Assembly (NCBI GenBank): GCA_034190045.1
Contig: JAXHTI010000001.1
Span: 2,658 to 66,657 of the forward strand
Origin: Pseudomonadota bacterium
Lineage (GTDB): Bacteria; Pseudomonadota; Gammaproteobacteria; UBA6429; Thiohalophilaceae
Length of the DNA: 64,000 bases
Direction of reading: 5' to 3'
Shown here: one piece after another, positions 10,034 through 53,015 of the stretch
Numbering within the stretch: the stretch's first letter is position 1
Layout: each line of letters opens with the position of its first letter
The notes under the pieces: model-generated
Told to the model about the DNA's origin: nothing
What the model saw: only the letters and a program-made list of their open reading frames with translations
The model's database searches: none
Translations under genes and position numbers: made by a program

Positions 10034-10810
10034 ATGAGCAGTACAGCCCAGGACATAAGCAGTGAGGGACGGGACGGATACGTCAGTACGCCCCGTCATA
10101 TCGCTATTATTATGGATGGTAACGGCCGCTGGGCACAGAAACGGCATTTGCCGCGCTTTGCCGGTCATAAAGCCGGTGTCGAGGCAGTACGGGAAGTTGT
10201 CAAAGCCTGTGGTGAAAAGGGAGTCCAGGTACTGACCCTGTTTGCCTTTTCCAGCGAAAACTGGCGGCGTCCGCAAAAAGAAGTCGGGCTGTTGATGGAC
10301 CTTTTTCTCACAGCACTGGAGCACGAGGTCAATAAGTTACACAAAAACAAAGTGCAATTGCGCATTATCGGCGATACCAGCGCTTTCCCCGATAAAATCC
10401 GCCGGCGTATTGAACAGGCCGAAACGCTGACCGCCGGTAATCATCAACTGGTATTGAATATTGCGGCCAATTATGGCGGCAAATGGGATATTAGCCAGGC
10501 AGTACAACAGCTGGCCAACAAGGTCCAGCAGGGCGAACTGACGCCTGAGCAAATTGATGATGAGCAGATTGCCGCTCATCTCAGTATGCGTGATTTACCC
10601 GAACCGGACCTGTTTATCCGTACCGGTGGCGAACAACGCATCAGTAACTTTCTTATCTGGCAACTGGCCTATACCGAACTGTATTTCACCGATGTTCTGT
10701 GGCCGGATTTCGATCGTAATGAACTGGAAAAGGCACTGGCTTCTTTTGCCAATCGTCAGCGTCGTTTCGGTCGTACCGGTGAACAGGTGGAGCAGCTCAA
10801 ACATGCTTAA
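10034..10810 (+). CDS. uppS: Undecaprenyl diphosphate synthase
   Basis: HIAIIMDGNGRWA, FAFSSENWRRP, DLFIRTGGEQRISNF; ORF open from 10016. Confidence 0.96.
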   Translation: MSSTAQDISSEGRDGYVSTPRHIAIIMDGNGRWAQKRHLPRFAGHKAGVEAVREVVKACGEKGVQVLTLFAFSSENWRRPQKEVGLLMDLFLTALEHEVNKLHKNKVQLRIIGDTSAFPDKIRRRIEQAETLTAGNHQLVLNIAANYGGKWDISQAVQQLANKVQQGELTPEQIDDEQIAAHLSMRDLPEPDLFIRTGGEQRISNFLIWQLAYTELYFTDVLWPDFDRNELEKALASFANRQRRFGRTGEQVEQLKHA

Positions 10811-42339: not shown

Positions 42340-43362
42340 ATGGCTGAGCACGGAAATGACGCAAACAAGATCAAGCGCGACACGGAAGTCGAGGAAGACC
42401 TGGATGCACTTCCGGAAGAGGATGAGAATGCGGAAGAACTGGTCATGGGGGACGATGTGGACGACGACCCGGCTGATGCCGCGCCGATCGAAGAACCGCA
42501 TCGGTATGAGCCCGGCGTGATTCCCGAAGGTCAGCTCGACGCCACCCGTTTATACCTCAGCGAAATCGGCTATTCACCGCTGCTGACGGCCGACGAAGAA
42601 AAATTCTATTCGCGCAAGGCCCTCAAGGGCGATGAAGCCGCGCGCAAGAAAATGATCGAATCCAACCTGCGCCTGGTGGTCAAGATCGCGCGGCGTTATC
42701 TCAACCGAGGCCTGGCCCTGCTGGATCTGATCGAGGAGGGCAACCTGGGCCTGATTCGCGCGGTGGAAAAATTCGACCCCGAACGCGGCTTTCGCTTCTC
42801 CACCTACGCCACCTGGTGGATCCGCCAGACCATCGAGCGGGCCATCATGAACCAGACCCGCACCATCCGCCTGCCGATCCACGTGGTCAAGGAGATCAAC
42901 ATCTACCTGCGCGCGGCGCGGCATCTGTCGCAGACCCTGGACCATGAGCCGACCACCGAAGAAATCGCCGAGATGCTCGACAAGCCGATCGACGAGGTGA
43001 AAAAAATGCTCGGCCTCAACGAGCGCATCGCCTCGGTCGACTCGCCCATGGGCCACGACGCCGACAACTCCCTGCTCGATGCCATCCCCGACGAGAACAA
43101 CAGCGATCCCGTCACCATGCTGCAGGACGACGACGTCAAGGCCAACATCGAACAGTGGCTGGCGCAGCTCAGTGAGAAACAGCGCGAAGTGGTCGAGCGC
43201 CGCTTCGGCCTGCACGGCTATGACGTGGCCACGCTGGAAGAGGTGGGTAACACCATCGGTGTCACCCGCGAGCGGGTGCGGCAGATCCAGCTCGAAGCTT
43301 TGAAGAAGCTACGCGACATCCTCGAAAAAGACGGGTTCTCCGTCGACGCCCTGTTTAAATAG
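42340..43362 (+). CDS. rpoS: RNA polymerase sigma factor RpoS
   Basis: [61 protein letters not shown]; follows nlpD. Confidence 0.96.
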
Positions 43363-43376
43363 ACTCCTTCTTTCCT

Positions 43377-43992
43377 TTATTCCCTCTCCCCCTTGGGGAC
43401 AAATCTGCCGGGAGCAGATTTGAACAGCCAACGGCTGGCCCGCAGGGTGGAGGGCAGGACGCCCGTAATAGAGGGTTAGGGAGAGGGGGAGAGAAAAGGT
43501 TAGCCCTCCGGGCTGACTGAATCTTGAAAGCGTTGATTTTCTTTTGTGGGAGGCGCTTGTAGCGGCGACTGTCTGCCGATGCCCCCTGACTATCAAAGTG
43601 ATCGCTCTGCGGGCGAGCCTGAATTTTGAAAACGGGCTCTCGCACCTCAGACTTTATTCCCGCCCCTCCAAGGGGAGGGCCAGGGAGGGGTGATCAAGCA
43701 TCTAACCCTCTCTAAATGTTCGCCCTCCGGGCGCCCTGGATCTTGAAAGCGGGCTCTCGCGCCCGCGCGGCGAGTGACTTTTTGAAGCGGCAAAAAGTCA
43801 CCAAAAACCGCTCCCGAAAGACGCCGCCGGTATAGCAATTTATCAATTGCTACACCGGTCCCCTGTGCTTCTCGCTCCAGTCGGGCTCGCCCGACGGCAC
43901 GTCCCTGTGCCGTCGAGCGAGTGGCGGCATCCCTGCCGCCACCCTGCGGGCTGTTCCTCCTTTCACTGCGATGCTCGGCGGCGTCTAACGGG
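43377..43992. mobile_element. Cluster of REP/MITE-like palindromic elements
   Basis: Two TTATTCCC..CCC..GGGGAG..GGGAG.GGG palindromes (43377-43490, interrupted by a 71-bp insert; 43654-43690), a GTGGGAG-type arm at 43546, three TGRATYTTGAAARCG copies, and a multi-hairpin element at 43774-43985. Confidence 0.7.
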
Positions 43993-44135
43993 ATAAAAAC
44001 CGGCTAGCTATAGTTAGGGAAAACCCTGATATTGCAAGAAAAATTCTTATGTCGTGCGTCGAAAAATTGGGGAATGCTTGCTAGGATTAGGGGTATCTGT
44101 ATTTTCAGGCTTTAGCCGGGGATAGGCAGACGTCT

Positions 44136-44154
44136 GTCTAAATCACTGTTAGGC
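44136..44154 (+). other. Integron attI-like recombination site (simple site)
   Basis: GTCTAAA-TCACT-GTTAGGC has the L box / 5-nt spacer / GTTRRRY layout of attI1 (CCCTAAA-ACAAA-GTTRRRY) and lies 5 nt before the first cassette ATG. Confidence 0.65.
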
Positions 44155-44159
44155 ATAAA

Positions 44160-44624
44160 ATGAATTACACCGACTTTTTGAATCAGCTAGAGAAAAATGG
44201 ATTCGAATTCATCGGTAAAGCCCTTGCGTTTAAAGAGCTTGATAATTGGGTTATTGGGTACATCGGCTTAGGTGGGAGATTTCAACAAGCTGGAACAAAA
44301 GCTTTCGTGCTTTGTGCTAGACCCAAAGACTTTGGATTCATGGATGCTCCTAAAAAGAAATATGCAACTGAACCAATGGAGTATCCATACAAACTGACTC
44401 CTGATAGCTTTAATAAAAACCTAGAATATAACTCAGAGCTATTAAGATTCGATCATGGCAGAGTTGAAACAGAGGCAGATTGGTCAAGTGTATATAAAAT
44501 ATTAAACAATGAGCTACCAGAAGCACTTAAGAAACTTGGTGTGGCTGGTTTAGTAAAACAACTCGAAAAGCTGAAAGAACCTGGGTACGTAGAAAAAATA
44601 TGGCTTGGTGAAGAAAATTCCTAA
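44160..44624 (+). CDS. Gene cassette 1, hypothetical protein (154 aa, AT-rich)
   Basis: ORF starts just after GTTAGGC and its TAA stop lies inside the R'' box (TCCTAAC) of the next attC. Confidence 0.8.
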   Translation: MNYTDFLNQLEKNGFEFIGKALAFKELDNWVIGYIGLGGRFQQAGTKAFVLCARPKDFGFMDAPKKKYATEPMEYPYKLTPDSFNKNLEYNSELLRFDHGRVETEADWSSVYKILNNELPEALKKLGVAGLVKQLEKLKEPGYVEKIWLGEENS

Positions 44625-44699
44625 CAAGGCCGTAAACTCGGACGTATTTTTCGTTCGCTACGCTCACTACAAATACGCCGGTTACGGCTGGCGTTAGCT
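44619..44699 (+). other. Integron attC site (81 bp)
   Basis: R'' TCCTAAC, L'' CGT[A]AAC[T]CGG[A]CGTATTT pairing with AAATACG-CCG-GTT-ACG, R' GTTAGCT; three extrahelical bases as in canonical attC. Confidence 0.9.
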
Positions 44700-44711
44700 G
44701 CACAAAAGAAT

Positions 44712-45299
44712 ATGTACGAAAACTTTTTAGATAATTACAGAAAATATGCTCAGGCTGAAAATACACCTGATACAGACTTATTGAATAAAATTGAACCATA
44801 TGCCAAAGGTTTCTTTGAGTTAATGGCTAGTTATGGTGGCGCTACATTTAATGAAGGATTATATAGGCTTCACTCAGTCCAAGATATTTTAAAGTGGACG
44901 CGGCTTGTAGAGGAAGAATTTACAAGCTATAAAGACAGATTCATCTGCTTCGGATACGACTGGCTTGGGAGGCATTTTGCTCTTGATAAAAGCAGAGTAG
45001 AAAACAATCAAATGCTTATTCTTCTGTTCGAGCCAGGCGCAGGTGAAGTAATGCAAATTCCTGTCAATTTCGAATCTTTTCATAATGAAGAGCTTGCAGA
45101 ATATCAAAATGAAGCACTAGCAAGTGAATTTTATAAAGAGTGGAGAAGCGCTGGGGGCGAAAACCCCTCACACCCCCAATGTATTGGTTATAAAGTTCCT
45201 CTGTTTCTAAATGGTAGTGACACAGTAGATAATTTGGAACTTTCTGACATGGAAGTATATTGGTCAATATGTGGTCAGACATTAAATGCAAACAGTTAA
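44712..45299 (+). CDS. Gene cassette 2, Tdi1-like (DUF1851-type) T6SS/polymorphic-toxin immunity protein
   Basis: YGGATFNEGLYRLH, FGYDWLGRHF, CIGYKVPLFLNGSDTVDNLELSDMEVYW motif; begins after GTTAGCT and ends in AGTTAAC. Confidence 0.7.
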   Translation: MYENFLDNYRKYAQAENTPDTDLLNKIEPYAKGFFELMASYGGATFNEGLYRLHSVQDILKWTRLVEEEFTSYKDRFICFGYDWLGRHFALDKSRVENNQMLILLFEPGAGEVMQIPVNFESFHNEELAEYQNEALASEFYKEWRSAGGENPSHPQCIGYKVPLFLNGSDTVDNLELSDMEVYWSICGQTLNANS

Positions 45300-45307
45300 C
45301 AAGCAGG
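45294..45307 (+). other. Truncated attC (R'' box only) of cassette 2
   Basis: AGTTAAC complements the cassette's GTTAGCT core except at one base and contains the stop codon; no matching L'/R' arm follows. Confidence 0.5.
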
Positions 45308-45373
45308 AATTCTGGGCACAGTATACCTATTTCCAGGACTGAGACTTGACTGAGCTTTTATATTAGAACAAAA

Positions 45374-45419
45374 GACGTGATGCAGTGGTCACGGTTTGGG
45401 CGAATGCTGTCGCGCCGTG
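45374..45419 (+). pseudogene. 46-bp fragment of the YiiD_C/thioesterase gene
   Basis: 43/46 identical to 46651-46696 and 47788-47833. Confidence 0.85.
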
Positions 45420-45477
45420 ATAGCGTGAACAAGGGGTCAGAACACTTGAATCTGAAATTCTGCTATCAGCGAGTGAT

Positions 45478-45520
45478 CTGAGCGTTTGAGCTGACTTGAA
45501 CGCCTTGAGCGCCTTGAACG
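45478..45520. repeat. Half periodic element (TTGARCG units, ~9-bp period)
   Basis: CTGAGCGT-TTGAGCTGAC-TTGAACGCC-TTGAGCGCC-TTGAACG; no facing arm. Confidence 0.5.
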
Positions 45521-45573
45521 GCACCCGAAATTAACTATCTGGGGTTTCTGGGTTTATCTTTAGGAGGTTATCT

Positions 45574-46224
45574 GTGAGTATTCTTCAAGGGACTGTCTAT
45601 AAATTATTATTTCTGTTTTTATGTTTGATTTTTCTCTCTTCTTGTATGACAAGTTATATGCTGGAAGAGGGAGATTATACCGAGGAGGTGTCAAGTTTTC
45701 TTGTTACTGAAGATGGCAGAAGGATGGTGATAATTGGTAATGACTACCACTATGTTTTCAAGATTGATAATAATCTACATAAAATCCTGATGTCGAAAAA
45801 CCGAAAATTTGTTAGACCGAATTTTTGGGGATTTAAGGTGGATGTTGATAATCGAATTACCGGTAATTACAGGTTGTTCGTAAAACCCGAGACCAGAGAA
45901 AGAGCTGAATGGTTTGTCGCTGCCGGCTTCTCTGAGCTTGCAAATAGAAAAGGTAATGAGAGTGAGTTGCACTTTACAGGGGGAATAAAAGGTATCAGAT
46001 ACAGGGCAATAGAAGAGATACCAGCAAAATATAAATTCAATAAAACCTATGAGATCAATATCACGGAAGAAGATGGTGGTATGGAAACAGTCACCAAGAA
46101 ATTATTTAGCCCCGTCACCGCGACAGCAGATGGTGTCCTGGTAATAGGTGGATTTGCGCTATTTGTTTCCTTTTATATGCTTATGGCTTTTACAGGGAAT
46201 TGTGATAACCCGGATATGTGTTAG
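45574..46224 (+). CDS. Putative lipoprotein, hypothetical
   Basis: AGGAGG RBS, GTG start, hydrophobic leader with lipobox LSSC, C-terminal hydrophobic segment. Confidence 0.7.
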   Translation: MSILQGTVYKLLFLFLCLIFLSSCMTSYMLEEGDYTEEVSSFLVTEDGRRMVIIGNDYHYVFKIDNNLHKILMSKNRKFVRPNFWGFKVDVDNRITGNYRLFVKPETRERAEWFVAAGFSELANRKGNESELHFTGGIKGIRYRAIEEIPAKYKFNKTYEINITEEDGGMETVTKKLFSPVTATADGVLVIGGFALFVSFYMLMAFTGNCDNPDMC

Positions 46225-46338
46225 TGAAAGTAATAGCTTCTGGTTAACAATATCTGGCCAATTTATTCTGCTAATTTAAGACAAATTATACCCGCTCCTG
46301 AAACTTCGAAATGACGCGCCTCATGAAATAACAAGGGA

Positions 46339-46752
46339 ATGTCAGTGCTACAGAATGAACTTGAAGCCTACCTCCACGAACACATCCCGCTGTCAAAAGC
46401 GATGGCGGTGTCGGTGGTGGGGCCGGGGCCGGAGAATATTGTATTGAGTGCACCACTGGCGCCGAATATCAATCATCGCGAGACGGTGTTTGGCGGTAGT
46501 GCGTCGGCGCTGGCGACGCTGGCGGCGTGGTCGTTGTTGCACGTCAGGCTTCGCAGTGAGGGTTTCACCAGTCGCCTGGTCATTCAGCGCAATATGATGG
46601 AGTATGATTTGCCGATTGATGGGACGTTTACGGCGCGGGCGTCGATGGAGGACGTGACGCAGTGGTCAAGGTTTGTGCGAATGCTGTCGCGCCGTGGCAA
46701 GGCCCAAGTGGCGGGGTCAGGTCTTGCGTTTTGCCTTATAGGTAGAAAATGA
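46339..46752 (+). pseudogene. 3'-truncated duplicate of the YiiD_C/thioesterase gene
   Basis: Near-identical to 47476-47842 up to 46705, then runs into a GGGGTCAGGTCTTGC motif. Confidence 0.8.
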
Positions 46753-46804
46753 CCAGAAGTAGCTGGGTCAAGTCTTGCGTTTTGTCTTATAGGTAGAAAA
46801 TGAC
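46714..46804 (+). repeat. 40-bp direct repeat x2 (51-bp period)
   Basis: GGGTCAGGTCTTGCGTTTTGCCTTATAGGTAGAAAATGAC (46714-46753) and GGGTCAAGTCTTGCGTTTTGTCTTATAGGTAGAAAATGAC (46765-46804). Confidence 0.85.
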
Positions 46805-46873
46805 GGTGCCTGGAGCGGTAGTGGGTTTCAATAAATGGTCGATATCTTTCGAATGAATAATTGCAGGTCGAAT

Positions 46874-47395
46874 ATGAATGTTTATCTTAAAGCCAAGCAT
46901 TGGCAGCTGTTTACTGTATTTTTCGGGTTGATTATTCTTGGTCAATCCCTCATGGCTTCTTCAATAATTAATGGTGATGCCTTTAATCCTCTTCTTTTAA
47001 TGATTCCAACATTAATTGTTGGCATGGTCTTCTTCGGATGGTTGTGGGCGATCGCCACTGCTTGCTCAAAAGTGCTTCCGAATGAACTATATTCTTCCCC
47101 TGGGTTCATGAGAGCCGGGCTGATTTATGCCCTGGTTTATGTTGTATTTAGTGGCGTGTTTTTCTTCGGTTCAGGGCCTGAGTTTCCGGGTTATATGATT
47201 ATCATGCATCTTCTGGCTATGGCGGCTATTTTCTATGCCCTTGGTTTCACTGCAAAGCAGCTTACCAAGTTAGAGCAAAAAAAAGACGTGTCATTTTATA
47301 ATTATTCCGGACCATTTTTTCTGTTTTGGTTTTTCCCTGTTGGTGTGTGGTTTATACAGCCAAAAGTTAACCAGCTGCTTGGTGAGAAGCCGTGA
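46874..47395 (+). CDS. Integral membrane protein, hypothetical (cassette-like, AT-rich)
   Basis: About five hydrophobic segments, AKHWQLF N-terminus, FFPVGVWFIQP C-terminus; ORF open from 46835. Confidence 0.75.
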   Translation: MNVYLKAKHWQLFTVFFGLIILGQSLMASSIINGDAFNPLLLMIPTLIVGMVFFGWLWAIATACSKVLPNELYSSPGFMRAGLIYALVYVVFSGVFFFGSGPEFPGYMIIMHLLAMAAIFYALGFTAKQLTKLEQKKDVSFYNYSGPFFLFWFFPVGVWFIQPKVNQLLGEKP

Positions 47396-47481
47396 TGATA
47401 GCTGGCGAAATTCTGGGGGCAGCACACCTGTTGTCAAAGCTAAATATTGATTAAGTATTATACTATAATAAGGGAATATCA

Positions 47482-47940
47482 GTGCTACAGAACGAACTTG
47501 AAGCCTACCTCCACGAACACATCCCGCTGTCAAAAGCGATGGCGGTGTCGGTGGTGGAGCCGGGGCCGGAGAATATTGTATTGAGTGCACCACTGGCGCC
47601 GAATATCAATCATCGCGAGACGGTGTTTGGCGGTAGTGCGTCGGCGCTGGCGACGCTGGCGGCGTGGTCGTTGTTGCACGTCAGGCTTCGCAGTGAGGGT
47701 TTCACCAGTCGCCTGGTCATTCAGCGCAATATGATGGAGTATGATTTGCCGATTGACGGGACGTTTACGGCGCGGGCGTCGATGGAGGACGTGACGCAGT
47801 GGTCAAGGTTTGTGCGAATGCTGTCGCGCCGTGGCAAGGCCCGGGTGGCTGTAACGTCGGTGCTGGCGTATAACGGGCAGGTGGCGGGGCGTTTTTCCGG
47901 CGAGTTTGTTGCTTTTGGTGGTGTTCCTGCTAATGGTTGA
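47482..47940 (+). CDS. YiiD C-terminal-like hotdog thioesterase
   Basis: YLHEHIPLSKAMAV, APLAPNINHRETVFGGSASALATLAAW, GRFSGEFV. Confidence 0.8.
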   Translation: MLQNELEAYLHEHIPLSKAMAVSVVEPGPENIVLSAPLAPNINHRETVFGGSASALATLAAWSLLHVRLRSEGFTSRLVIQRNMMEYDLPIDGTFTARASMEDVTQWSRFVRMLSRRGKARVAVTSVLAYNGQVAGRFSGEFVAFGGVPANG

Positions 47941-48098
47941 CTGGCTGGTCGGGCTATCCAGGAATGGGAGTATTCAGGCTGATTTCAAAATATTCCTGCT
48001 TAGAGCGCAGAGTATACTGGATTTGTAAAACTGTTCATTTCTGCCGGTCTGTTATTTTGCGCTGGCAGATTTATTTAACACAGGGTAGGGAGGCCGTC

Positions 48099-48557
48099 AT
48101 GTTACAACAATTCAGGTTGATTCCGTTTGTCCTGGGCTTGCTTATGTTAGCTCTGAGTGTTCCGGGCTGCACGGTTCGCTATGTGGCGGATTACGATGCA
48201 GAGGTCAAAGCGGAGATTCTGCGGATTGCCAAAGAGGTGGATCTGTTCTGGGGGCGCTTGCTGGATACGCATTCGGACGAGCGGCAGTATACGAAATTTC
48301 AGGCGGACTATAACCGGATCGAGTCGGATCTGCGTAATCTTGTAATGCGCAACGAGATTCGCCCTCTCAATGAGTTATCCACCGAGCAGTCGCAGATTGC
48401 GCTGGATCTCTGGATCGGTGACAAGTCCAGTCACAAGGAGAATGACACGATTTCCGATTTCATTGCCCGTCGTCACCGTCAGCAATACGTCCGGGTTTTT
48501 GTTGCCATGGCGAAAGGCGAGATAGCCAAGGAATCAACGCAGGAAAATAACAACTGA
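48099..48557 (+). CDS. Putative lipoprotein, hypothetical
   Basis: GGAGG RBS before ATG 48099, lipobox VPGC, helical body. Confidence 0.7.
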   Translation: MLQQFRLIPFVLGLLMLALSVPGCTVRYVADYDAEVKAEILRIAKEVDLFWGRLLDTHSDERQYTKFQADYNRIESDLRNLVMRNEIRPLNELSTEQSQIALDLWIGDKSSHKENDTISDFIARRHRQQYVRVFVAMAKGEIAKESTQENNN

Positions 48558-48581
48558 CACTTGACATCAAGGAGGTGAGTC

Positions 48582-48890
48582 ATGGATATCGAAGCGATTT
48601 TGAAGCAGATGGTGGCCGCGGCCAATGACGCCGTCGAGGGTGATGTGGGGGAGATCACCGACTACGCGAAGCAGATTGTCGAACAGCAGAAACAGTCACT
48701 GGAGGAGCTGGCCAAAGCACGCATCAGCGGCGAAATAGATGATGATGTATTCGAACAGGAAGTGGAACGGGAAAAGCAGGTGGTGAAAGCCCAACTGCTG
48801 GCCGTGCAGATTATGACCGAAGCCGCTGCGCAAAAGGCGGTCAATGCCGCCATCGATACATTCAAAAATGCCGTTAAAACGATTATTTAG
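48582..48890 (+). CDS. Small acidic all-helical hypothetical protein
   Basis: [10 protein letters not shown], clean 102-aa ORF in the operon. Confidence 0.75.
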   Translation: MDIEAILKQMVAAANDAVEGDVGEITDYAKQIVEQQKQSLEELAKARISGEIDDDVFEQEVEREKQVVKAQLLAVQIMTEAAAQKAVNAAIDTFKNAVKTII

Positions 48891-48933
48891 TTACCGGTGG
48901 ATTCCTGGTGGATTCATTTTCTGAGGGATTAAT

Positions 48934-49485
48934 GTGATATATCGATATTTATTGGTGATAGCCATTGTTTTGCTGTCGGGTTGTGCCGGGTTGCGCAGTC
49001 CGGAAGAGACGCGTGTCACGGTCAGCGAGTTGCTGGATCAGATTCAGATCGCGATCAATGAAATCGAAGCGCAAACCAGCGGCAGGTCGCTGCCTGGATT
49101 CAAGTACGCTGAAATTACCTTGTCGACCAGTGCAAAGGGGGCAAAAGAAGCATCCGGTAATTTTGTTCTATCGGGTGAGGGAAAGTGGAGCAGGACTAAA
49201 TCCAATACGCTGATTCTTGTGTTGACGCCGGATAAGTCCGGTAAAAAACTCACATCAGCCGCAACTGGCCGGCAACTGGCCGAATATGTGATCGGTGCGG
49301 TCGATGCGATCGACCGAAATAATCAGCTGGCGTTGAAAAAGCTGGTCATCGAAACCGGGTTTAATGTGACGACAGATAAGGCAGGGGGGCTGGAGATTGA
49401 AGTTGTGGGTATATCGGCAGGTGGGAAGCTCTCCACGACCTCCAGCAACAGCCATACCCTGAAACTCGTTTTTGAAAATCATTAA
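48934..49485 (+). CDS. Lipoprotein with tandem Trypco2-like domains
   Basis: Lipobox LSGC; two helix + beta-hairpin units (VSELLDQIQIAI...AEITLST...SNTLILVLTP; LAEYVIGAV...LVIETGFNV...SHTLKLVF). Confidence 0.5.
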   Translation: MIYRYLLVIAIVLLSGCAGLRSPEETRVTVSELLDQIQIAINEIEAQTSGRSLPGFKYAEITLSTSAKGAKEASGNFVLSGEGKWSRTKSNTLILVLTPDKSGKKLTSAATGRQLAEYVIGAVDAIDRNNQLALKKLVIETGFNVTTDKAGGLEIEVVGISAGGKLSTTSSNSHTLKLVFENH

Positions 49486-49499
49486 CTCAAAGTATTGAA

Positions 49500-49967
49500 A
49501 TGGAACTGAGTATACCGACCGTTCTCAAGGCGCTCTCCTCGGCCGGGACGGCGATGAAGGAGTTCGGTGCCTGGAAGGCACGGGCGCGCGGGGATGAGCG
49601 CGCCCTGATCGGGGAGTTGAAGGATAACCTGCATTATCTGGATCTGGTGGCCGAAGACGGGGTGCCCTTACGCGAGGTGATCGGCAAACTGTCGGTGGCG
49701 GAATATAAAAAACTGGCCAATCGGGGTTACAATTTCGACACTATCAAGAAAAAAACGATCGAGAGTTATCCGTCGCTGGAGGGAACGGACCTGGCGCCCT
49801 GGCGGGGCAAGCATACGGCTGAATTGATCGAGTCGATTTATGACAAGATTAACGAGCTGATCATCAAGTTCCCTTACGTCGAAAAGAATCAGAATTATCG
49901 CTGGGGCGCCAGGGTGAACAATATCCGCAAGCGTATCTGGTTGTTACTGCGGCACGTGCGTGGTTGA
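49500..49967 (+). CDS. Hypothetical protein (155 aa)
   Basis: ORF tightly coupled to the upstream gene, same strand. Confidence 0.7.
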   Translation: MELSIPTVLKALSSAGTAMKEFGAWKARARGDERALIGELKDNLHYLDLVAEDGVPLREVIGKLSVAEYKKLANRGYNFDTIKKKTIESYPSLEGTDLAPWRGKHTAELIESIYDKINELIIKFPYVEKNQNYRWGARVNNIRKRIWLLLRHVRG

Positions 49968-50015
49968 ATCCCGGTAAATAAGAAGAATTAACTCGGACAT
50001 AAAGGGGCTCGCTGG

Positions 50016-53015
50016 ATGGAATATCGACTGATCTGCAAGGGGAAGCTTGTCGAGGGGAGTGATGAAGCCAAAGCCATCGAGGAAATTGCCCGGCTCACCG
50101 GGCTGGATGAATCGACCATTCGGGATAAATTACTGGCCGGTCAGCGGGTCAAGCTGAAAAGCTCGTCGGACAAAGCGAAAATTGAGAAATTATATGCCGC
50201 GTTGAAAAATGCCGGTCTGGATATCGAGCTGGAATCAGGCAAAGCGAAATCCACCCGACGTTCCTCACCGGGCGCCGGTAAAGGCCCTTCATCCCGCAAA
50301 CCCGCTTCCGGGGCCAGAAAAAAATGGCTCATCGCCGGCTCGCTCACCATTTTGCTGCTGCTCGGTACAACGGGAGGCTATCTCTGGCATCTGAGCAGGG
50401 TTCCTTATCCCGCCGTGGCAAAAACCGCCGAAGCAGCACTGGCCGACGGTAACCTGGTCGCACTGGCCCACGCCAATGTCAGCAAGCTGGTCGAGCTGAA
50501 TCGCCTCGCCTTTGGAGAGATGGACCCCGCGGCTCTGTCTGTCGGCGCGGCAAAAACAGATATTCTCTCTGCGTTATTTGATGGGCCGGCCAATTTTCGC
50601 GACAACCTCGATCAGCTGATGGTGGGTGTTTATTCCGGTGGGCCCGAGCAGCCGGGTAGAACTGCACTATTACTGCTGGGCGACTTTAATCAATCCTCGG
50701 TACTGGAAACCTTTCGTCGGCATTATGCGCCGGAGACTGTCACTGGCGCAACGAACTGGTATTTGCTGAAGGATAAGCCAAAGGCGGTTAAGGCCGAAGA
50801 GGCCTGTCCGGATTATAGGTCAAAAAGCGCCTCTGATAAACCCGCCTATCTGTATGCAAACGGCAGTTCGATGTTGTTGATCGATGATCTCGACTACGGC
50901 AAGGATTTGATCGTGCGTCTGCAACGCAAGGCCGGGGCGCAACAGGATCTGACGCAATGGCAGCGCTATCGTGCCGATAAGCTGGCCAGCCTGATGATTT
51001 TTGCCATCCCGGAAACCGGCAAAGCCCTGGGGGGTATGCAGGGAATGATGATGAACCAGGCCGGCAGCGAAAATACGCAAATCCACAGTCTGGCTGCCGG
51101 CCTGCGGGCGGATCTTCTGTCGCTTTCCCTGAAGTTGAATCTGAGCCTGTTCAGTGATGATGCCGCCTGGAAGAGCGAAACCTCCGGGCAGATTACCCGG
51201 AGCATCGAAGAGCTTAAAGGCAATACCCGCAAAGTGACGCCTACCATGAGCCAGTTGCTGTCAAATATCCAGGTCAAATCACAACCAGAAAGCCTGGAGG
51301 TTGATGTCGCTCTGGATGGGAGTGTGCTGGATGATATCGAGAATGTGGTTCGGGAATCGCTGGCGGCGTTGATGGGCGGGGCAATGACCGCGAGTCAACA
51401 GAACGCGCCTGTCGAAGAAAAATTACAAAACAACCCGGTCGATTATACCGGGAACAAGGTCTTTACCAGCTTGCCGCCCTTGCAACTGGAGTCTTATGAG
51501 ACAACGCCGCTGTTTCAGGATGGCCCGTTCGCAGTGGATCTGGACAGCATAAAAAAGAACGATGACGGTCTGTTCGAGGTGTTGCTGCAAGGCAAGGCCG
51601 GGTTACCGAAAAAAGCGGACAGCGACGCTAACAATCGTACCGGTGAGCTGGCGCTGCATGTGGAGACGGTTACGGACGAGGAGGGCAATAACCTGCTTCG
51701 GGACGAGCACTGCGTGACCCCCAACGAATTGTTCGGTCGCAGTCCCAACCATGAGTCCGAGACCTCCACGTCCCTGTTTCAGAATAATGTAACGGTCAGA
51801 AAAACCCTGCGCCTGCGTCCCGATGTTCAGCCCGGGGATATCCGCAGTATACAGGGATACATCCGCTTTACATCGCCGGTCTCCGTGCGTGAATACCCTG
51901 TTCCCTTGCAGGCGGGGGAAAGTATTGAACAGGAGGGGATGCGCTTTTATCTCTCTCGTGTCGGGGATAACAGTGTGTCCTACCAGGTCTCGGGCAACTC
52001 CGGGAAGCTGCTGGAGGTTCGGGCGTTTAATGATCAGGGTCAACCATTGCGCACTGGCTGGCGTATGAGCAGTGCCGGCGATGGTCGGGTTACGCAAAAT
52101 TACCACGGGAAAGTTCATGAACTGAAAATATTCGTGGCAAGCCGAACCGTTACACACAAAACAGACTTCCGGCTCGAAAACCTGTTTACCCCCTCCGGTG
52201 ATCAAGAGGATGAGATAAAGCCGGATTATATGGCCCCGGAACAAATTGCACTGTCTGACTGGAATGCGTACAAAGAGCTGGATTTTCTCAGGCTGGAGAT
52301 CGACCCGGATAAATGGGTAACCGCTGGCAAAAAATCGCCCCCCATTGCCGAGGAACACTGGCGTGAGATCAGTCTGTATCTGACGCATACACCGTCACAG
52401 TGGAGCAATGCCCCCTGGGCCCATATTTATTTCCCCATGCTGAACAAATTGCCCGCCGTGCTTTCGGCATTCAGCTACCGGATTGAGGAACCGGCGGAAA
52501 AAGAAGGCCCCCGGGAGCACTATGTCCGGATCAGTTATCCTTACAAGACCGACACCGGCGAAGTGGTTGCCCGGCATAGCCTGAATGGCATGCCGATTGC
52601 CCAACAAAGCCTGCAGTTACGCTCCGGGCTCGAGGATGAACAACGCCTGGATGCGATCAAGGGCCGGCTGCAGGTCCGCCTGCCCATCCGGACTGCTTCC
52701 ACTACGTTTGAATTGGCCGAATTATGGGACGGCCAGTCTGTCGATGGCGTCACCGTCACACTGACCGCGCTCAATCGCGGTACCTTTGCAGGCCACAGTC
52801 TCAAAATCGAGGGCGATATCGAAAAACTGGTTAATGTTCATGGCCTGGATAGCAACGGACAAAGGGTGATGGCGGATCCCATCAATTACCAGCAGGCCGG
52901 CTACTGGACCATGACCCTGCCATTCGGCAAAGGGATCGAAGCGGTTGAACTGATCCTCGCGGACAAGCAGGAAGTTCTGACATATCCGTTCGAACTCGAC
53001 GTTCGTTATCCCTGA
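50016..53015 (+). CDS. Large single-pass membrane-anchored hypothetical protein (999 aa)
   Basis: Small cytoplasmic N-domain, Ser/Lys linker, TM (WLIAGSLTILLLLGTTGGYLW), large beta-rich periplasmic region. Confidence 0.8.
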   Translation: MEYRLICKGKLVEGSDEAKAIEEIARLTGLDESTIRDKLLAGQRVKLKSSSDKAKIEKLYAALKNAGLDIELESGKAKSTRRSSPGAGKGPSSRKPASGARKKWLIAGSLTILLLLGTTGGYLWHLSRVPYPAVAKTAEAALADGNLVALAHANVSKLVELNRLAFGEMDPAALSVGAAKTDILSALFDGPANFRDNLDQLMVGVYSGGPEQPGRTALLLLGDFNQSSVLETFRRHYAPETVTGATNWYLLKDKPKAVKAEEACPDYRSKSASDKPAYLYANGSSMLLIDDLDYGKDLIVRLQRKAGAQQDLTQWQRYRADKLASLMIFAIPETGKALGGMQGMMMNQAGSENTQIHSLAAGLRADLLSLSLKLNLSLFSDDAAWKSETSGQITRSIEELKGNTRKVTPTMSQLLSNIQVKSQPESLEVDVALDGSVLDDIENVVRESLAALMGGAMTASQQNAPVEEKLQNNPVDYTGNKVFTSLPPLQLESYETTPLFQDGPFAVDLDSIKKNDDGLFEVLLQGKAGLPKKADSDANNRTGELALHVETVTDEEGNNLLRDEHCVTPNELFGRSPNHESETSTSLFQNNVTVRKTLRLRPDVQPGDIRSIQGYIRFTSPVSVREYPVPLQAGESIEQEGMRFYLSRVGDNSVSYQVSGNSGKLLEVRAFNDQGQPLRTGWRMSSAGDGRVTQNYHGKVHELKIFVASRTVTHKTDFRLENLFTPSGDQEDEIKPDYMAPEQIALSDWNAYKELDFLRLEIDPDKWVTAGKKSPPIAEEHWREISLYLTHTPSQWSNAPWAHIYFPMLNKLPAVLSAFSYRIEEPAEKEGPREHYVRISYPYKTDTGEVVARHSLNGMPIAQQSLQLRSGLEDEQRLDAIKGRLQVRLPIRTASTTFELAELWDGQSVDGVTVTLTALNRGTFAGHSLKIEGDIEKLVNVHGLDSNGQRVMADPINYQQAGYWTMTLPFGKGIEAVELILADKQEVLTYPFELDVRYP

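Follow-up and report, generated by a model that had tools for sequence, protein, structure and literature searches.

We analysed a 64-kb stretch of a gammaproteobacterial genome, referred to below as the window (C1:2658-66657 of the 3.08-Mb assembly G000, which comprises 331 contigs and is 95.9% complete), in which a short integron array lies downstream of rpoS. Genomes, contigs and loci carry our own G, C and L numbers. The rpoS open reading frame (ORF; 42340..43362, forward strand) encodes 340 amino acids, is 88-97% identical across all eight other species of the genus, and forms the left flank of a variable region. Within this region follow a 188-nt repeat, an attI recombination site, two gene cassettes, the first with a complete attC site, and a repetitive extragenic palindromic (REP) sequence; no integron integrase gene (intI) lies among them. 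The G+C content, 57% for the genome, drops from about 60% to 36-43% in the interval 44050-46300. The closest named relatives by RpoS (81-87% identity) are metagenome-assembled genomes (MAGs) labelled Thioalkalispiraceae, Chromatiales, Ectothiorhodospiraceae and Thiohalomonadaceae, and the comparison genomes are mostly MAGs. Taken together, the comparisons show a genuine integron platform without an integrase, and they favour service of the site in trans over a frozen relic; we put the probability of this reading at roughly 0.7.

The attI site

At 44125..44154 (forward strand) a direct repeat (GGCAGACGTCTG) is fused to a simple site, GTCTAAATCACTG|TTAGGC. The sequence at 44136-44154 is GTCTAAATCACTGTTAGGC, and the crossover falls between G44148 and T44149. 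The 17-nt core is identical at all 17 positions to that of the intI-linked attI of G001, a member of the same genus, where some 120 nt separate it from the start codon of intI. The same core occurs in the intI-linked attI of G084, and there is one mismatch with that of G088. An earlier note on this DNA, made from the sequence alone, had placed an attI-type site at 44136, and the identity with the G001 and G084 cores confirms that placement.

We aligned 20 attI regions anchored at the crossover, three of them linked to intI (G001, G084 and G088), two beside a truncated intI (G024 and G028), and the rest intI-less. All 20 have a common architecture and diverge immediately past G|TT; in the window, homology stops exactly at 44148|44149. 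The alignment also contains two conserved platform boxes on the forward strand, TCGAAAA (44059-44065) and TGCTAGGATTAGGGG (44079-44093). The second is common to the intI-linked attI regions too, whereas TCGAAAA, which lies between the 188-nt element and the TGCTAGGATTA box, is present in the orphan copies and missing from the canonical ones. The canonical attI of G001, upstream of the intI start codon, consists of TGCTAGGATTATGGG, the direct repeats GGCAGATTCTGTCTATATCC and ACAGATTCTGTCTAAATCAC, and TG|TTAGCGC, followed by the cassettes. A second direct repeat is present in most relatives and gone from the window attI through a 28-nt deletion. The window site is the G001 copy L138, which keeps both repeats, minus 28 nt between the repeats, and therefore one repeat has been lost. 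By homology to intI-adjacent attI sites and by the homology breakpoints, the region has the simple site, G|TT crossover and preceding repeats of an attI, and this comparison identifies 44125-44154 as an attI of the same type as those in this gammaproteobacterial family's chromosomal integrons. The family attI consensus, (R)CAGAnnTCTGYCTA ... GTCTAAATCACTG|TTA, is a direct handle for finding such sites.

The cassettes could in principle have been inserted at a secondary site (the attG route), that is, into a genomic GTT that merely resembles attI, leaving a single attC site lacking an integron integrase (SALIN). Integrase-less isolated cassettes are common, attG insertion is documented (bioRxiv 10.1101/2022.09.11.507474), and only one attC is intact here. 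However, the target of such an insertion should differ from attI and attC, and the target here is an attI homologue with the full family architecture (box, direct repeat, L and R boxes) and a core identical to that of intI-linked attI. The same site also precedes different cassettes in other genomes. We rejected attG insertion as contradicted by these observations and regard it as very improbable.

Cassette 1 and its attC

Cassette 1 (44149..44693, forward strand) is 545 nt long with 39% G+C, and its ORF (44160-44624) encodes a protein of 154 amino acids with no known domain. The cassette opens with TTAGGC 11 nt ahead of the ATG, and its stop codon TAA (44622-44624) lies inside R'' (TCCTAAC, 44619-44625), as had been noted earlier. 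The CCTAAC of R'' is complementary to the cassette's own start, GTTAGG (TTAGG/CCTAA). A homologue of the protein, 94% identical, is encoded in Motilimonas cestriensis within an array of small same-strand ORFs and attC-like repeats. At the DNA level the two cassettes are identical at 462 of 479 positions (96.5%), from the G of GTTAGGC to CCTAACA, and the 60-nt flanks are only 22% and 28% identical. Judged by these edges, such sharply bounded identity is the signature of a cassette that moved as a unit.

The attC of cassette 1 (44619..44699, forward strand, 81 nt) runs from this R'' to an R' of GTTAGCT and has three bulged bases on the R''/L'' arm. Its bottom strand is predicted to fold into an imperfect hairpin of -17.1 kcal/mol (z = -3.1). 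R''/R' cores, an imperfect palindrome and extrahelical bases on the R''/L'' arm, the features that define an attC, are thus all present. In a rule-based scan for R''/R' cores, complementarity and a spanning stem, 44619-44699 was the only strong candidate in the window, and few such sites occur genome-wide.

We also built a covariance model, R1, from 24 attC sites in relatives' arrays, leaving out the window attC and its close homologue. The sites were trimmed to their arms (27 nt + GAAA + 23 nt) and aligned to a hand-given structure; a full-length MAFFT alignment misaligned the 3' arms. In this alignment 73.5% of cells are paired, compared with at most 44% when the partners are slid, and none of 500 shuffles reached its covariation score. 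The default R1 search of the 64 kb on both strands returned a single match, 44619-44699 on the plus strand, covering the full model length at 27.1 bits (E 3e-5, the E-values of this model being rough). A search with the filters off omits the 81-nt site (the model window is assumed to be shorter than 81 nt), and we trusted the default search. The earlier note had described a canonical 81-bp attC here and had named failure against attC covariance models, together with a lack of recombination at the 44136 site, as grounds for abandoning the array; the model recovers the attC at exactly those coordinates.

Applied to relatives' arrays and to the other contigs of G000, R1 recovers 19 sites, and its matches there beyond the training set score 13-46 bits. 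The window attC is 92% identical to the attC of an orphan array in G001. The stems differ only by two compensatory pairs (G-C to A-T and T-A to C-G), and the loop carries two more changes. The bulges lie 18, 20 and 24 positions from R'' in the window attC and at 16-17, 20 and 24 in relatives. A BLAST search of the window attC against its own genome returned only itself, and a diverged homologue on C318 emerged from the rule scan and R1. Elsewhere in G000 there are further attC sites at C318:9635-9709 and 10386-10467 and at C137:2619-2675 (R1 scores of 37.2, 17.8 and 17.5 bits), one of the C318 sites being the diverged homologue just mentioned, and C116:3049-3186 was found by the rule scan only.

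Cassette 2 and the right boundary of the array

Cassette 2 (44694..45307, forward strand, 37.5% G+C) is truncated at its 3' end. Its ORF (44712-45299) encodes 195 amino acids of the DUF1851/T6SS_Tdi1_C, SUKH-like immunity family (Pfam PF08906, E 3.7e-8). The stop codon lies within AGTTAAC (45294-45300), which is one change from the complement of the cassette start GTTAGCT; the homologue on the Logan metagenomic contig L174 has AGCTAAC at this point. That homologue, 82% identical, has the same start, TTAGCTG.ACAAAAGAATATG, right after an attC of 30.5 bits. It ends in AGCTAACAAGCAGG as cassette 2 does, and then continues into the remainder of its attC. The earlier note's second cassette with a matching R'' therefore stands, with one change in R'' and a boundary-matched homologue. 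What is left of the attC of cassette 2 is a 14-nt remnant, AGTTAACAAGCAGG (45294..45307, forward strand), composed of the R''-like AGTTAAC and AAGCAGG, the rest being missing by comparison with L174. The default-filter R1 search of the whole window found no second attC.

In place of the rest of this attC stands a REP sequence, AATTCTGGGCACAGTATACCTATTTCC (45308..45334, forward strand). The motif TCCGGGGACAGTATACCTATTT has three copies in this genome and ten in G007, and none for the reversed control. On C10 of G007, one forward and three tandem reverse copies flank a gene for a 228-aa Y1_Tnp (IS200-like) protein, an arrangement of the REP-associated tyrosine transposase (RAYT) type. On C277 the orphan array also ends in this REP, as do the arrays at the rpoS loci of G001, G003, G006 and G007. 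By the L174 comparison and the RAYT-flanking motif, the REP is the right boundary of the array, and it has removed the remainder of the attC. The motif at 45308 was also considered as an attI relic or as the end of an attC-targeting insertion sequence; both were rejected in favour of a RAYT-associated REP.

In both cassettes the start is complementary to the cassette's own R'', in cassette 2 with one change, and the ORF fills the cassette. By comparison with their homologues, these are two promoterless cassettes with the boundaries expected of integrase-mediated attI x attC recombination at G|TT. Chance is excluded because homologues of the attI, the attC and the cassettes exist.

The missing integrase

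A search of the whole assembly with TIGR02249 gave a best score of 88 bits against a cut-off of 265, with no match on this contig. With the G001 IntI as query, tblastn returned only Xer-like matches of 25-30% identity, none of them on this contig, and there is no intI remnant between rpoS and attI. The absence of intI reported in the earlier note is thus upheld for the locus and extends to the 96%-complete assembly. Among 61 family relatives, 30 have an intI above the TIGR02249 cut-off, and within the genus only G001 does. At E 1e-40, intI is missing from seven of the genus's eight other species; three of these, G003, G006 and G007, have 20-70 contigs and a rated completeness of 99-100%. IntI adjoins attI in G084 and G088, and truncated IntI remnants stand beside attI in G024 and G028.

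In G001 the single intI is on another contig, and the genome has at least four attI sites. The window site is one of at least five orphan sites in its own genome, which suggests that a single integrase, encoded elsewhere, can act on many dispersed sites. The G001 IntI (L034 8519-9922, on C2) has 468 amino acids with an N-terminal extension of about 150. Pfam recognises two stretches of SAM-like N-terminal domain in the protein, and open frames of 470-510 amino acids recur among many relatives. In an unrelated Pseudomonadales MAG (JANQMK010000096.1; L080 5780-6325), rpoS is followed directly, on the opposite strand, by a frameshifted intI remnant; integrons may settle repeatedly at this position.

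The organism could also have its own intI on an unassembled or unbinned contig, in which case the window site would be an ordinary secondary attI, a special case of service in trans. The assembly, with 331 contigs and 95.9% completeness, leaves room for such a gene, two of the five attI modules of this genome are at contig ends, relatives' integron regions often end contigs, and G001 provides an example of one intI with several attI. The lack of intI in seven of eight other species, three of them nearly or fully complete in few contigs, speaks against it, and we think a resident integrase of this kind rather unlikely.

The 188-nt repeat and orphan attI sites

Going leftwards, homology to the canonical attI regions reaches as far as the TGCTAGGATTA box. 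Past this box, at the position of the intI start in G001, G084 and G088, the window has TCGAAAA and a GC-rich structured repeat of 188 nt (43813..44000, forward strand), 148 nt before the crossover, which stands where intI would be. By this comparison, intI has been deleted or replaced at this locus. The genome has five attI sites, all without intI: the one in the window and those at C93:3854, C106:252, C269:1684 and C277:7854. Copies of the 188-nt repeat, 84-93% identical and in the same orientation, are upstream of all five. Of 16 orphan attI examined in the genus, 15, spread across seven species, have the repeat upstream, the exception being L154. The distance from the end of the repeat to the crossover is typically about 175 nt (160-180) and is 340-370 nt at two rpoS-type sites. 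The repeat is not found beside the canonical intI-linked attI of G001. About 11 copies of the element occur in G000: five are attI-linked, one is at a decayed module on C168, and the others include copies on C324 and C13.

RNAalifold applied to 12 copies predicts a common multi-helix fold of 62 pairs, 10 of them with compensatory changes. On the cassette strand the fold includes numerous invariant G-U pairs, and a CCTCC stretch stays unpaired. The repeat has no match in Rfam. The element could be a miniature inverted-repeat transposable element (MITE) or a structured RNA. At L166 (C269:1-2026 of G000), an orphan attI and about 1.5 kb of cassette DNA are bracketed by two inverted copies of the repeat, resembling a composite mobile unit.

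Each of the 15 orphan loci that share the intI-less junction has a different sequence right after G|TT. The attI core pattern (19 nt, at most three mismatches) occurs in 63 of 75 family genomes with up to 11 copies, compared with 0-3 for the reversed control, and intI numbers 0-4 per family genome, fewer than the attI cores. Orphan attI are also present in other genera (G035 and G077). The earlier note regarded the retention of attI without intI as unusual, a view that does not hold for this lineage, where orphan attI are the rule family-wide. On the JGI metagenome contig Ga0316193_10006562 (L193 7600-8090), about 170 nt past the end of a GC-rich gene of housekeeping type, an attI with two direct repeats precedes a cassette together with an attC (27.4 bits); 7.6 kb of this contig contain no intI. 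A metagenome scan with the window-specific junction of repeat and core returned one contig, from a different locus, and no population variants of the window site.

The rpoS locus in relatives

The gap between rpoS and the thioesterase gene to its right is 175 bp in G008, an empty site, and 1.2 kb in G003, 2.7 kb in G001, 3.7 kb in G006 and 4.1 kb here. The rpoS loci of G001 and G006 have common upstream DNA and the attI variant CGAACGGCCGTCTATTTAACTG|, and their first cassettes differ, one continuing with TTAGAAGGC and the other with TTATAGCG. The first cassette of the G001 locus ends in an R'', GCCTTCTAAC, that is the exact complement of its start. In G006 (L029, C14:186100-190500, reverse strand), the first cassette's attC is interrupted by the gene for a group II intron reverse transcriptase of 444 amino acids, read on the other strand from the cassette, as has been described for group IIC introns that target attC. 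The earlier note had proposed comparing the regions downstream of rpoS in relatives for intI and for different first cassettes; the first cassettes do differ, between G001 and G006, and among the other species of the genus only G001 has an intI, on another contig.

Service in trans or a frozen relic

The earlier note left two readings side by side, either deletion of intI followed by a frozen array or service in trans by an integrase elsewhere. Its deletion of intI is borne out, with the 188-nt repeat in the place of the gene; of its two outcomes, the frozen array is disfavoured, and the differing cassettes at 15 loci favour service in trans.

Since the orphan-specific junction is shared, the intI-less module would have arisen once in the genus and then spread. 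Cassettes would later have been inserted or exchanged at the orphan sites by IntI acting in trans: every orphan copy differs from G|TT on, and therefore recombination would have occurred after the loss of intI from the module. The low divergence of cassette 1 (3.5% from the copy in another order) also points to service in trans, but this is supportive only, as rates may differ between sequences. Were an integrase present, cassette 1 could still be excised by attI x attC recombination and new cassettes could still enter at 44148|44149, and cassette 2 would no longer be excisable on its own. Standard assays supply IntI from a plasmid. Recognition of attI is confined to the cognate integrase, and IntI is provided in trans in recombination assays (PMC2095811). 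Service in trans fits this chemistry, in which attI requires the cognate IntI without the gene having to be in cis.

A frozen relic would mean that the cassettes were inserted while an adjacent intI existed, that the repeat then replaced intI, and that no recombination has taken place since. The lack of intI in the assembly, the deletion of one attI direct repeat and the destruction of the cassette 2 attC by the REP would all be expected of such a relic. Xanthomonas-type chromosomal integrons with inactivated intI offer a known precedent (preprint 10.1101/2025.06.18.660453). Against this stand the 15 loci with a common orphan junction, whose first cassettes all differ, indicating that recombination went on after intI was lost. 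The 3.5% divergence of cassette 1 is also low compared with that between species of the genus that are already intI-less, which is 9% for the final 141 bases of rpoS and 12-17% for the flanking non-coding DNA. Furthermore, the attI core is perfectly conserved and the attC stem changes are compensatory only. We consider the relic improbable.

Several points weigh against service in trans. There is no integrase in a 96%-complete assembly of 331 contigs. The loss of one of the two attI direct repeats and of the last attC are signs of decay. The evidence is comparative throughout, and the training set of R1 was chosen by our own hairpin rules. A strict sigma-70 promoter scan found no promoter near attI; by eye there is a candidate cassette promoter (Pc), TTGCTA-16 nt-TATTTT with 8 of 12 matches, in the conserved-box region, where the strict scan was negative, and 44059-44093 is possibly a promoter region. 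Finally, the attI-proximal 60 nt at the rpoS locus of G000 are unlike those of G001 and G006 and resemble the G001 module L138, and therefore homologous replacement between paralogous modules may also contribute to the differences between species.

We suggest tentatively, as a less than even proposition, that this lineage has a split integron, in which attI platforms lacking an integrase are spread in large numbers along the chromosome, each providing a first cassette position, and are served by one integrase that is encoded elsewhere or visiting. In the genus the platforms would be fused to the 188-nt element, which may mobilise or duplicate them in the manner of a MITE or act as an RNA leader for the cassettes.

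DNA downstream of the array

Three copies of a YiiD_C thioesterase sequence lie within 45374-47940: a 46-nt fragment (45374-45419), the 5' two-thirds of the gene (46328-46720) and the full gene (47482-47940). The break point is almost identical in the two partial copies, and each continues with GGGGTCAG. Single REP copies, at 45308-45334 (the one that cuts off the attC) and at 47409-47435, precede two of the thioesterase copies. Low-GC ORFs for a lipoprotein-like protein of 216 amino acids (45574-46224) and a membrane protein of 186 amino acids (46835-47395) lie between the thioesterase copies. At 46706-46804 there are two tandem 51-nt units (GGGTCAGGTCTTGCGTTTTGCCTTATAGGTAGAAAATGAC), and similar sequence is found, in reverse complement, on C266 and beside the decayed attI module on C168; the unit is probably another small dispersed repeat. 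PADLOC gave no match for the four low-GC ORFs. A search of 43300-50500 against Rfam 15, with E up to 10, returned nothing relevant, neither an attC nor a repeat family.

Comparison with known systems

The textbook integron has one attI adjoining intI, and the expression of its cassettes drops with distance from attI. If many attI are served in trans, several cassettes would be in first position at once, arrays would stay short, and platforms could outlive the integrase. A full-text search found no description of dispersed orphan attI sites within the literature searched. New here are the five intI-less attI in one genome, the 188-nt repeat in the place of intI, and the excess of attI cores over intI across the family.

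Clusters of attC, or single attC, that lack an integron integrase are known as CALINs and SALINs, respectively (Cury et al. 2016, PMC4889954; Loot et al., bioRxiv 10.1101/2022.09.11.507474). Their origin by integrase loss, rearrangement or attG insertion is debated (PMC4889954; bioRxiv 10.1101/2022.09.11.507474). The window array resembles them in having cassettes with attC, no intI within reach, and no intI pseudogene nearby, as is so for 95% of CALINs. With one intact attC and a 14-nt remnant, it falls below the CALIN threshold of two attC. It has the single attC and lacks the integrase, as a SALIN does, but an attI lies 470 nt upstream, so that other att sites are not absent from the vicinity, and without an intI beside the array it is not a complete integron either. 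IntegronFinder seeks only the exact attI sequences of classes 1-3 (PMC4889954), and therefore such platforms would be filed as CALINs or SALINs with their attI passed over, and the retention of attI is not normally assessed. If service in trans is correct, some CALINs and SALINs would be working docking sites, rather than debris or off-target insertions, and their attI would be overlooked because such sequences are specific to a lineage.

In the attI1 of class 1 integrons, the simple site comprises two boxes in inverse orientation and has its crossover at G|TT; two direct repeats, DR1 and DR2, which bind IntI1, precede it. The window attI likewise has a simple site, a G|TT crossover and an upstream repeat, which by analogy would bind the integrase, and it has no sequence similarity to attI1 beyond GTTAGGC. 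Like the ilvD-linked integrons of Xanthomonas with inactivated intI (preprint 10.1101/2025.06.18.660453), the array occupies a fixed position by a core gene with no working integrase adjacent. Those integrons reportedly form a single locus that keeps an intI gene or pseudogene, whereas here there is no trace of intI and the platform is multi-copy.

The closest counterparts are the canonical integrons of the lineage itself (G001, C2:68.4-69.9 kb; G084; G088). The window array resembles them in its attI core, direct repeats, TGCTAGGATTA box, kind of attC and cassette orientation, and differs in having the 188-nt repeat for intI, one direct repeat, and a short array that ends in a REP.

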